Source: Escherichia coli
GTDB lineage: Bacteria > Pseudomonadota > Gammaproteobacteria > Enterobacterales > Enterobacteriaceae
DNA length: 64,000 nucleotides
Direction: 5' to 3' (one strand)
Assembly: GCF_013315695.1 (NCBI RefSeq)
Contig: NZ_CP054353.1
Both the position numbers and the translations under genes were made by a program. The first letter of the stretch is position 1, and each line of letters starts with the position of its first letter. Positions 48,003-60,633 of the stretch are shown here, one piece after another. Below the pieces are notes generated by a model that was not told the DNA's origin, searched no databases, and saw only the letters and a program-made list of their open reading frames with translations.

Positions 48003-48017
48003 GGTAATGACTCCAAC

Positions 48018-48521
48018 TTATTGATAGTGTTTTATGTTCAGATAATGCCCGATGACTTTGTCATGCAGCTCCACCGATTTTGAGAACGACAGCGACTTCC
48101 GTCCCAGCCGTGCCAGGTGCTGCCTCAGATTCAGGTTATGCCGCTCAATTCGCTGCGTATATCGCTTGCTGATTACGTGCAGCTTTCCCTTCAGGCGGGA
48201 TTCATACAGCGGCCAGCCATCCGTCATCCATATCACCACGTCAAAGGGTGACAGCAGGCTCATAAGACGCCCCAGCGTCGCCATAGTGCGTTCACCGAAT
48301 ACGTGCGCAACAACCGTCTTCCGGAGCCTGTCATACGCGTAAAACAGCCAGCGCTGGCGCGATTTAGCCCCGACATAGCCCCACTGTTCGTCCATTTCCG
48401 CGCAGACGATGACGTCACTGCCCGGCTGTATGCGCGAGGTTACCGACTGCGGCCTGAGTTTTTTAAGTGACGTAAAATCGTGTTGAGGCCAACGCCCATA
48501 ATGCGGGCTGTTGCCCGGCAT
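48018..48521 (-). CDS. insB: IS1 transposase InsB frame (expressed as InsAB' by -1 frameshift)
   Basis: 167-aa ORF identical to the one in copy 2. Confidence 0.9.
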
Positions 48522-48715
48522 CCAACGCCATTCATGGCCATATCAATGATTTTCTGGTGCGTACCGGGTTGAGAAGCGGTGTAAGTGAACTGCAGTTGCC
48601 ATGTTTTACGGCAGTGAGAGCAGAGATAGCGCTGATGTCCGGCGGTGCTTTTGCCGTTACGCACCACCCCGTCAGTAGCTGAACAGGAGGGACAGCTGAT
48701 AGAAACAGAAGCCAC
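48440..48715 (-). CDS. insA: IS1 InsA (transposition inhibitor / N-terminal part of transposase)
   Basis: 91-aa [24 protein letters not shown]... with zinc-finger Cys pairs. Confidence 0.9.
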
Positions 48716-48770
48716 TGGAGCACCTCAAAAACACAATCATACACTAAATCAGTAAGTTGGCAGCATCACC

Positions 48771-48779
48771 TGTGGCAAT
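48771..48779. repeat. IS1 target-site duplication, right copy (TGTGGCAAT)
   Basis: Matches 47994..48002. Confidence 0.8.
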
Positions 48780-50297
48780 TATTGTTAATGATAATGGCCT
48801 GAAAGCAGGAACGCGTTTTCCGGATGAGCTGGAATTAATTGAACATATTCCCCAGGGGCATAAAGTCGCATTGCTGGACATTCCAGCTAATGGTGAAATT
48901 ATTCGTTATGGCGAAGTGATTGGTTACGCCGTGCGCGCAATCCCACGCGGAAGCTGGATCGACGAATCAATGGTTGTACTACCGGAAGCGCCGCCGTTAC
49001 ACACGCTGCCACTGGCAACCAAAGTCCCGGAACCCTTACCGCCGCTGGAAGGATACACCTTTGAGGGCTATCGCAATGCCGATGGCAGCGTGGGCACTAA
49101 AAACCTGCTCGGCATCACCACCAGCGTCCACTGTGTAGCAGGCGTGGTGGACTATGTAGTAAAAATCATTGAACGCGATCTGCTACCGAAATACCCGAAC
49201 GTCGATGGCGTGGTGGGGCTGAATCATTTGTACGGCTGTGGCGTGGCGATTAACGCACCGGCGGCAGTTGTGCCTATTCGTACCATCCACAATATTTCGC
49301 TGAACCCTAACTTTGGCGGCGAAGTAATGGTGATTGGTCTGGGTTGTGAAAAGTTGCAGCCTGAGCGCCTGCTGACTGGAACGGATGATGTGCAAGCTAT
49401 TCCAGTAGAAAGCGCCAGCATTGTCAGTTTGCAGGATGAAAAGCATGTCGGCTTTCAGTCCATGGTCGAGGATATTTTGCAGGTCGCCGAACGCCATTTG
49501 CACAAACTGAATCGACGGCAGCGAGAAACCTGTCCGGCTTCAGAACTGGTTGTTGGCATGCAGTGCGGTGGCAGCGATGCGTTTTCTGGCGTAACGGCAA
49601 ACCCGGCGGTTGGGTATGCGTCTGATCTACTGGTGCGCTGCGGCGCAACGGTGATGTTTTCAGAAGTCACGGAAGTGCGTGACGCGATCCATCTGCTGAC
49701 ACCACGCGCAGTGAACGAAGAGGTCGGCAAACGGCTGCTGGAGGAGATGGAGTGGTACGATAACTATCTCAATATGGGAAAAACCGACCGCAGCGCCAAC
49801 CCTTCGCCGGGCAACAAGAAAGGCGGTCTGGCAAATGTGGTGGAGAAAGCGCTCGGCTCCATTGCTAAATCGGGTAAAAGTGCAATTGTTGAAGTGCTGT
49901 CGCCCGGCCAACGCCCGACTAAACGCGGATTAATTTACGCCGCGACGCCAGCCAGCGATTTTGTCTGTGGCACGCAACAGGTGGCTTCGGGTATCACCGT
50001 GCAAGTGTTTACGACCGGTCGCGGTACGCCGTACGGCCTGATGGCGGTACCCGTCATTAAAATGGCAACCCGCACCGAGCTGGCGAACCGCTGGTTTGAT
50101 TTAATGGATATTAATGCGGGCACCATCGCTACCGGCGAAGAAACTATTGAAGAGGTGGGCTGGAAGTTGTTCCACTTTATTCTCGACGTCGCCAGCGGGA
50201 AGAAGAAAACCTTCTCAGATCAATGGGGACTGCATAACCAGCTGGCGGTGTTTAACCCAGCACCGGTGACCTGATTTCTTTTGGAACGTCCCTCGCA

Positions 50298-50330
50298 AAA
50301 CATGGCCTTAGTGCCATGTTTTTATTGTTT
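50298..50330 (+). terminator. Rho-independent terminator after garD
   Basis: AAAACATGGC-CTTAGT-GCCATGTTTT perfect hairpin followed by TATTGTTT. Confidence 0.7.
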
Positions 50331-58856: not shown

Positions 58857-58868
58857 GAGGATCGCATT

Positions 58869-59729
58869 ATGAGCATTATCTCCACCAAATATCTGTTACA
58901 GGACGCCCAGGCCAATGGCTACGCGGTGCCTGCCTTTAACATTCATAACGCCGAGACGATCCAGGCGATCCTCGAAGTGTGCAGTGAAATGCGATCGCCG
59001 GTGATCCTCGCCGGGACGCCGGGGACCTTTAAACATATCGCGCTGGAAGAGATCTACGCCCTGTGTAGTGCCTATTCCACAACCTACAACATGCCACTGG
59101 CGCTGCATCTCGACCACCACGAATCGTTGGATGATATTCGCCGTAAAGTCCACGCAGGCGTGCGCAGTGCGATGATCGACGGCAGCCACTTCCCGTTTGA
59201 CGAGAACGTAAAGCTGGTGAAATCGGTTGTCGACTTCTGCCACTCACAGGATTGCAGCGTGGAAGCAGAACTGGGCCGCCTCGGCGGTGTTGAAGATGAC
59301 ATGAGCGTTGACGCCGAAAGTGCATTCCTGACCGATCCACAAGAAGCTAAACGCTTTGTCGAACTGACTGGCGTCGACAGCCTGGCGGTAGCGATTGGTA
59401 CGGCGCACGGCTTATACAGCAAAACGCCGAAGATTGATTTCCAGCGGCTGGCGGAAATTCGTGAAGTGGTGGATGTTCCTCTGGTGCTGCATGGTGCCAG
59501 CGATGTCCCGGATGAATTTGTCCGTCGCACTATTGAACTTGGCGTCACAAAAGTGAACGTTGCCACAGAATTAAAAATAGCCTTCGCTGGCGCGGTTAAA
59601 GCCTGGTTTGCAGAAAATCCGCAGGGTAATGATCCTCGTTATTATATGCGCGTCGGTATGGATGCGATGAAAGAAGTTGTCAGAAATAAAATTAATGTCT
59701 GTGGTTCAGCGAATCGAAATTCAGCATAA
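58869..59729 (+). CDS. kbaY: Tagatose-1,6-bisphosphate aldolase (class II)
   Basis: 286-aa ORF recognised as KbaY/AgaY. Confidence 0.9.
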
Positions 59730-59880
59730 TCATTAGTTTTTTATGATTTATCCCAATGTACTTCCCGATTAATATCGGGGAGTGCCTTAATGGAAAAGGA
59801 GATAACTAAACCTTAATAAATACATCAGTAAAATATCGCAACAATAATATATTTTAAAAAATTATGGTAATGACTCCAAC

Positions 59881-60384
59881 TTATTGATAGTGTTTTATGT
59901 TCAGATAATGCCCGATGACTTTGTCATGCAGCTCCACCGATTTTGAGAACGACAGCGACTTCCGTCCCAGCCGTGCCAGGTGCTGCCTCAGATTCAGGTT
60001 ATGCCGCTCAATTCGCTGCGTATATCGCTTGCTGATTACGTGCAGCTTTCCCTTCAGGCGGGATTCATACAGCGGCCAGCCATCCGTCATCCATATCACC
60101 ACGTCAAAGGGTGACAGCAGGCTCATAAGACGCCCCAGCGTCGCCATAGTGCGTTCACCGAATACGTGCGCAACAACCGTCTTCCGGAGCCTGTCATACG
60201 CGTAAAACAGCCAGCGCTGGCGCGATTTAGCCCCGACATAGCCCCACTGTTCGTCCATTTCCGCGCAGACGATGACGTCACTGCCCGGCTGTATGCGCGA
60301 GGTTACCGACTGCGGCCTGAGTTTTTTAAGTGACGTAAAATCGTGTTGAGGCCAACGCCCATAATGCGGGCTGTTGCCCGGCAT
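59881..60384 (-). CDS. insB: IS1 transposase InsB frame
   Basis: 167-aa ORF identical to copy 1. Confidence 0.9.
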
Positions 60385-60578
60385 CCAACGCCATTCATGG
60401 CCATATCAATGATTTTCTGGTGCGTACCGGGTTGAGAAGCGGTGTAAGTGAACTGCAGTTGCCATGTTTTACGGCAGTGAGAGCAGAGATAGCGCTGATG
60501 TCCGGCGGTGCTTTTGCCGTTACGCACCACCCCGTCAGTAACTGAACAGGAGGGACAGCTGATAGAAACAGAAGCCAC
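60303..60578 (-). CDS. insA: IS1 InsA
   Basis: 91-aa ORF differing from copy 1 at one residue (SCSVTDG versus SCSATDG). Confidence 0.9.
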
Positions 60579-60633
60579 TGGAGCACCTCAAAAACACCAT
60601 CATACACTAAATCAGTAAGTTGGCAGCATCACC

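Follow-up and report, generated by a model that had tools for sequence, protein, structure and literature searches.

Two direct IS1 copies around the garD–aga segment of an Escherichia coli chromosome: probable stepwise origin and natural losses of the interval

Two copies of the insertion sequence IS1, lying in the same orientation, bracket a chromosomal segment within a 64,000 nt stretch of Escherichia coli DNA (contig NZ_CP054353.1, assembly GCF_013315695.1; the whole stretch is hereafter called the window). The segment holds the greater part of garD, the toxin-antitoxin genes prlF-yhaV and the N-acetylgalactosamine genes from agaR to kbaY. Its position between two direct repeats raises the question of whether it moved as a unit or was enclosed where it stood, and of what the arrangement means for the persistence of the genes inside it. 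Comparison of the window with two close relatives, strains MSB1_4I and AF3, indicated that a native block of the chromosome was bracketed through three IS1 events, each of an ordinary kind, in a single E. coli lineage, a reading to which we assign a probability of about 0.9.

Structure and order of the two insertions

The left copy occupies positions 48003-48770 and the right copy positions 59866-60633, both on the minus strand and both 768 bp long, as located with a repeat finder, pairwise alignment and BLAST of the window against itself. They are direct repeats with 99.74 % identity over 768 bp, far beyond chance, and self-BLAST and the repeat finder revealed no third IS1 copy in the 64 kb window. 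The DNA between them (48771-59865) measures 11,095 bp and runs from the truncated garD to kbaY, in agreement with an initial annotation of this stretch that had described two direct copies around a segment of ~11.1 kb with the same gene list. In the left copy, the right and left terminal repeats (IRR and IRL) lie at 48003-48025 and 48748-48770, insA at 48440-48715, insB' at 48018-48521 and the frameshift motif TTAAAAAAC at 48458-48466. The corresponding positions in the right copy are 59866-59888 (IRR), 60611-60633 (IRL), 60303-60578 (insA) and 59881-60384 (insB'). Both copies have the 23 nt imperfect terminal arms GGTAATGACTCCAACTTATTGAT and ATCAGTAAGTTGGCAGCATCACC, which are 78 % complementary, and the A6C frameshift motif falls at IS1 coordinate 305. 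The 91 aa InsA and 167 aa InsB' match NCBIfam NF033558 (IS1 family transposase) at profile positions 1-81 and 75-199, respectively, and the copy in MSB1_4I that is identical to the right IS1 is labelled by RefSeq as an IS1A family transposase with programmed frameshift. By length, terminal repeats, insA/insB' frames and a 9 bp duplication on simple insertion, both elements are members of the IS1 family. The frames are intact in both copies.

The two copies differ in their flanks. The left IS1 lies within garD between the two members of a perfect 9 bp direct repeat, TGTGGCAAT (47994-48002, garD nt 69-77, and 48771-48779), whilst the right IS1 is preceded by AAAAATTAT (59857-59865) and followed by ACAAACGGT and is thus without a target duplication. 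Both target sites are AT-rich (40.5 and 27.3 % GC versus a window mean of 50 %), which fits the known preference of IS1 for AT-rich DNA.

The two relatives place these insertions in order. Strain MSB1_4I (NZ_LR898874.1) differs from the window by seven single bases in ~63 kb (99.97-100 % identity), and the sole structural difference is that its garD is intact. Its right IS1 is 100 % identical in sequence and has the same junctions and the same shortened agaB. Strain AF3 (NZ_OZ547117.1), of the same lineage with ~11 differences in 48 kb, carries an IS1 between kbaY and agaB with the left junction and orientation seen in the window; there the element lies between two copies of AAAAATTAT, and the agaB beyond it is complete. 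The 9-mer at 59857-59865 is, on this basis, the surviving copy of the right element's original target duplication. Relative to K-12, the window and MSB1_4I are missing 296 bp, comprising 30 bp upstream of agaB and agaB nt 1-266; relative to AF3 the loss is 305 bp, the second AAAAATTAT 9-mer included, and the deletion junction in agaB is ambiguous by two nucleotides (CC). The left insertion is absent from both relatives, and none of 5,426 complete genomes contained its junction as a contiguous match. MSB1_4I therefore has the right copy only and the left insertion is confined to the window, from which it follows that the two copies are independent insertions. The initial annotation had reached the same conclusion from the sequence differences between the copies, which two single-nucleotide polymorphisms (SNPs) alone would not have proved. 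It had also taken the absence of a duplication at one copy as the trace of an earlier IS1-mediated rearrangement of the segment. The AF3 precursor bears out the rearrangement, but the lost DNA lies outside the bracket, on the agaB side, and the segment itself is colinear.

A three-way SNP table gave the tree (AF3,(MSB1_4I,window)). The window and MSB1_4I differ at positions 482, 6244, 27444, 55411, 58346, 58640 and 63451, and all five of the differences that AF3 can polarize are private to the window, with no private change in MSB1_4I in this region. Either the branch leading to the window strain is longer or errors are slightly more frequent in its assembly, a choice that touches the reality of the private base in the left IS1. 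SNP density inside and outside the bracket was also compared, on the basis of few differences only. The bracketed block, for its part, is colinear with that of other E. coli and keeps its native order between garP and agaC; it is present and colinear in MSB1_4I and AF3, each of which has one IS1 at this locus.

These observations fit a simple succession. An IS1 first entered the AT-rich kbaY-agaB spacer with duplication of the 9 bp AAAAATTAT, the state kept in AF3. On the IRL side of this element, 296 bp reaching into agaB were then lost, and the duplication with them, the state kept in MSB1_4I; the same copy also gained the InsA A13V change at some point after the AF3-type state. In the window strain only, a second IS1 finally made a simple insertion in garD codons 23-26, with duplication of TGTGGCAAT.

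The base differences between the copies were considered separately. There are exactly two, G at 48678 versus A at 60541 and A at 48735 versus C at 60598, the same pair that the initial annotation had quoted. The former alters InsA residue 13, which lies within the N-terminal zinc-binding domain and is the usual alanine in the left copy and valine in the right copy (A13V, base 60541). The latter lies at IS1 coordinate 36, upstream of insA, where it immediately follows a TATGAT that resembles a -10 promoter hexamer. A 91 nt stretch spanning both variable sites was searched against 20,395 E. coli records, thousands of which contained the version without either change. The allele of the right copy was matched exactly only in MSB1_4I (at the same locus) and in two pig-carcass isolates, the allele of the left copy had no exact full-length match in these records, and the IS1 of AF3 at the right-hand site has G (Ala13) at the variable base. 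Each copy is thus a canonical IS1 with one private change, and these differences fit separate origins without proving them on their own.

Natural deletions and IS1 insertions at the locus

The initial annotation had proposed that homologous recombination between the copies would excise the whole segment. We queried complete genomes with a deletion junction in which the 603 bp that precede the left IS1 run directly into the 603 bp that follow the right IS1. Eight genomes placed both flanks within ~2 kb of each other, and inspection together with mapping to K-12 resolved these into four different alleles, in each of which agaB is linked, through a single IS1 without target duplication, to the garP-garD spacer or to a point within the first 37 nt of garD. 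In a second set of 16 genomes, in which an IS1 lies downstream of the garD site of the window and within a few hundred bases of it, six were inspected and all six proved to be deletions, with a single IS1 joining garD nt 107-262 to agaD, to the DNA upstream of yraH, to yraI or to yraJ. At least ten independent alleles therefore remove garD, prlF-yhaV and aga genes, sometimes with yra genes, and leave one IS1 and no target duplication; they span 8.8-14.7 kb in K-12 numbering. The strains concerned are EM20-18-50, 63-2, DXMF6-3R, 29A20CPO013, 74-2, MIN9, EA7, EC812A1, LR-31 and CUVM53, most of which have small, IS1-rich genomes and come from poultry, pigs, pets or humans. The agaB junction and IS1 variant of 29A20CPO013 also occur in strain 035152, which keeps a simple insertion and the whole block, so that these two genomes form a second precursor-product pair.

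Strain 035152 displays a related arrangement of its own. Two IS1 copies of a divergent type (96 % identity to those of the window) lie in direct orientation in agaB nt 163-170 and yraJ nt 104-112, of which the yraJ copy has a perfect 9 bp duplication and the agaB copy an apparent 8 bp duplication, and the pair encloses agaB'-agaC-agaD-agaI-yraH-yraI.

Loss of the bracketed segment with retention of a single IS1 is plausible in view of these alleles, which give the earlier proposal a natural parallel at the same locus; the precise product of recombination between the two window copies was not among them, and the deletion between these copies is accordingly an expectation. The bracket could resolve by deletion, through either RecA-dependent recombination or IS1 action, by amplification through unequal exchange or, in principle, by Tn9-like movement. 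IS1-adjacent deletions of 11-66 kb that involve nfsB have been recorded in clinical E. coli at 2-99 per million cells (PMC10569738).

Simple insertions are likewise frequent at the right-hand end of the interval. At least seven independent ones lie between kbaY and agaB or in the first third of agaB, in strains AF3, CFSAN061771, WS4437A-1, PT62, FDAARGOS_944, APEC-O117H42 and 035152. The junction-query design was repeated at two control sites of the same window. IS1 junctions were present in 16 genomes for the 5' part of garD (47926-48260) and in 25 for agaB and the kbaY-agaB spacer (59730-60633), compared with a single genome for the tdcA-tdcR spacer, which at 33 % GC is far more AT-rich than the garD zone, and none for the exuT-uxaC region. 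Measured against these two controls only, the counts suggest that the 5' part of garD and the kbaY-agaB interval are unusually prone to, or tolerant of, IS1.

A wider and more tentative idea is that IS1-rich E. coli repeatedly lose garD-prlF-yhaV-aga(-yra) through IS1, the interval being a deletion hot spot, and that the window strain would be a two-IS1 intermediate caught before resolution. The kbaY-agaB spacer would be a frequent landing site of IS1, with the 5' end of garD as the preferred far endpoint. Were this so, some hosts would favour loss of the block or the loss would be mechanically very frequent, and cultures of the window strain would hold a measurable subpopulation unable to use N-acetylgalactosamine. 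We consider it possible rather than probable. The bracket itself is a textbook IS1 configuration, and the recurrent IS1-linked loss of garD-aga is only modestly new and would need a genome-wide baseline. A literature search returned general papers on IS1 and no paper on IS1 at this garD/aga locus.

Weighing other explanations

The mechanism of the second step admits two routes. Missing target duplications have been attributed to adjacent deletion or to recombination between IS copies, and a multi-step course of insertion followed by deletion has been described in the long-term evolution experiment (PMC11708052). The comparison with AF3 displays the pattern of an adjacent deletion, in that a precursor with its duplication is extant and the derivative keeps the IS1 and its left junction and loses DNA on the IRL side; we infer that the step was transposase-driven. 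The duplication might instead have been lost by homologous recombination between the copy at the AF3 site and a later direct copy in agaB near nt 258-266, in which case the survivor would be a hybrid. Besides being an accepted cause of missing duplications (PMC11708052), this route can point to agaB taking IS1 insertions in other strains (035152 and APEC-O117H42) and to the rare A13V base, which could stem from the second copy. It would need two events where adjacent deletion needs one, however, the deleted interval is only 296 bp, and our junction search of complete genomes found neither a genome with an IS1 at agaB nt ~258-266 nor a two-copy intermediate. We therefore regard recombination as unlikely here, and adjacent deletion would be the favoured source of the 296 bp loss. 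It is very improbable that either copy is an artefact of an assembler that misplaced or duplicated a repeat. This lineage has many IS1 copies (at least 40 places in MSB1_4I) and repeats are a classic source of misassembly, but the left copy is a full 768 bp element that sits, with its perfect 9 bp duplication, at one garD site only, the independent assembly of MSB1_4I has the right copy with the same junctions, the left of which is also present in AF3, and the two copies have different private bases, which a collapsed or copied repeat would not produce.

Direct IS1 pairs can form compound transposons, Tn9 being an example, and the initial annotation had called the pair and its contents a composite-transposon-like unit. 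That description holds for the form, since both outer ends are intact (IRR 48003-48025 and IRL 60611-60633). As history, namely that a 12.6 kb Tn9-like transposon moved into this site or elsewhere as a unit, it is already contradicted and we give it next to no credence: the passenger genes stand in native order beside their native neighbours garP and agaC, as in K-12 and thousands of genomes, the outer 9-mers TGTGGCAAT and ACAAACGGT are unlike rather than a single target duplication, the relatives have the same block with one IS1, and the unit was found at no other locus or replicon, with no true E. coli plasmid carrying the block in a search of a plasmid collection. 'Composite transposon' is thus a structural description only. 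A further suggestion concerned the genes inside, with prlF-yhaV acting as an addiction module that guards the segment from IS1-mediated loss. Toxin and antitoxin genes are both intact and inside the bracket, and some chromosomal toxin-antitoxin pairs have been reported to stabilize neighbouring DNA. The pair is nevertheless absent from 265 of the 5,426 complete genomes, every one of the deletion alleles described above removes it, and an MG1655 derivative, Delta10, deleted for prlF/yhaV and nine other pairs is viable and widely used (PMC5120126). The cost on loss that the initial annotation had envisaged is accordingly not borne out as a barrier; a transient cost may accompany loss of the pair, there is no sign that it protects the block, and a stabilizing role seems to us quite improbable.

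Two sets of plasmid matches were set aside in this connection. The E. coli records labelled as plasmids that appeared to indicate mobilization are either 4.8-4.9 Mb in length or, in the case of the 353 kb NZ_MG591698.1, have chromosomal synteny from garK to yraI; they are probably mislabelled rather than instances of plasmid carriage of the aga region. In Klebsiella pneumoniae, the IncFIB/IncFII plasmid NZ_CP041094.1 and similar conjugative plasmids have a truncated garD and, after it, agaR-kbaZ-agaVWEF-nagA-agaS-kbaY, with ~78 % identity to the window; prlF-yhaV and agaBCDI are missing. No full IS1 adjoins this module, and nearby lie an IS110-family gene and a short fragment of the IS1 family. 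Comparable genes have thus been mobilized as a block in another genus, but with 78 % identity and no full IS1 beside it the module is uninformative about the unit in the window.

Several points weigh against the three-event history and the consequences we attach to it. The sequence alone cannot tell a one-ended adjacent deletion from recombination between IS1 copies at the second step, and the two-copy structure is known from the assembled sequence. No donor of the left copy was found, as its base at coordinate 36 is in no IS1 among the 20,395 records; this base could be a sequencing error or a mutation that arose after insertion. Nor does any complete genome searched contain the exact product expected of the bracket, garD nt 77 joined through IS1 to agaB nt 267. 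Finally, the phenotypes proposed below are inferred from gene disruption only.

Gene content and biological meaning

Gene names follow the RefSeq annotation of MSB1_4I, which is 99.97-100 % identical over the window. Alignment to K-12 garD showed that the left IS1 severs a 5' fragment (47926-48002, plus strand; nt 1-77, codons 1-26) from the rest of the gene, leaving a 3' part (48771-50274, plus strand; nt 69-1572) that has neither a start codon nor a promoter of its own. At this junction, a promoter-like hybrid spans 48757-48785 (plus strand), with TTGGCA in the end of the left IS1, a spacing of 17 nt and TATTGT in garD (9/12 match to consensus). This candidate, which came from a scan of the left junction only, could in principle read into the truncated garD and prlF-yhaV. 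The genes prlF (50423-50758; 111 aa) and yhaV (50758-51222; 154 aa), both on the plus strand and both 100 % identical to their annotated counterparts in MSB1_4I, make up an intact type II toxin-antitoxin pair.

The repressor gene of the aga regulon, agaR, follows on the minus strand (51277-52086), and kbaZ, agaV, agaW, agaE, agaF, agaA (annotated as nagA), agaS and kbaY occupy 52335-59729 on the plus strand, as identified from open reading frames and the MSB1_4I annotation. The N-acetylgalactosamine pathway block is therefore complete, and the agaW-agaA deletion of K-12 is not present in the window. Beyond the right IS1 lie the 3' remnant of agaB (60634-60844, plus strand; nt 267-477 by alignment to K-12 and AF3), which is a RefSeq pseudogene in MSB1_4I, and the intact galactosamine genes agaC, agaD and agaI (60883-63235, plus strand), left without their IIB partner. 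As garD is cut at codon 26 and agaB lacks its start together with nt 1-266, the strain has probably lost its galactosamine transporter and the use of galactarate, and it is predicted to grow on neither galactarate nor galactosamine.

Three features elsewhere in the window were recorded in passing. Directly after agaI comes rsmI (63236-63284), and the yraHIJK fimbrial operon of K-12 is absent there in the window, MSB1_4I and AF3. A four-gene CS1-type chaperone-usher fimbrial cluster (14418-19518, minus strand) lies between exuR and exuT in this lineage and encodes a chaperone, a major subunit, an usher-like TcfC-domain protein and a CfaE/CblD tip adhesin. Between rlmG and fadH (1925-2415, minus strand; MSB1_4I annotation), a 78 nt remnant of the higB toxin gene stands beside an intact higA, which is thus an orphan antitoxin gene.

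Set beside known systems, the bracket is a case of IS1A-type insertion and adjacent deletion, with which it shares the 768 bp length, 23 bp repeats, A6C motif, 9 bp duplication and AT-rich targets. It differs from ordinary IS1 in nothing of kind, its particulars being a garD site found in none of the 5,426 complete genomes and one rare base in each copy. The r-determinant of R100/NR1 and Tn9 are IS1-flanked segments. Another is the arn region of E. coli B, where, as in the window, two direct IS1 copies enclose a gene block and provide a substrate for RecA-dependent deletion or amplification, and where transient amplification has been reported (PMC11253626). Unlike the arn region, R100 and Tn9, the window displays no amplification, excision or transposition of the unit, its passenger is native core DNA without a resistance gene, and its bracket was formed in place from two separate events. 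The right copy, which keeps the element and one junction, resembles both the insertion-then-deletion pattern of PMC11708052 and the IS1-adjacent nfsB deletions of PMC10569738. The agaW'-agaA' deletion of K-12 is similar in being a natural loss-of-function rearrangement in the aga cluster that alters amino-sugar use. The K-12 lesion, however, is internal to the cluster and has no IS annotated at the site, whereas the lesions of the window are IS1-made, fall in garD and agaB and leave the N-acetylgalactosamine genes complete.

In sum, the insertion in AF3, the small deletion in MSB1_4I, the second insertion in the window and the deletions of the whole block in other lineages constitute a natural series, which shows the stepwise erosion by IS1 of a core metabolic region of E. 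coli. The data count against the idea that chromosomal prlF-yhaV stabilizes its neighbourhood, and the window strain may segregate variants in which the N-acetylgalactosamine genes are lost or amplified.

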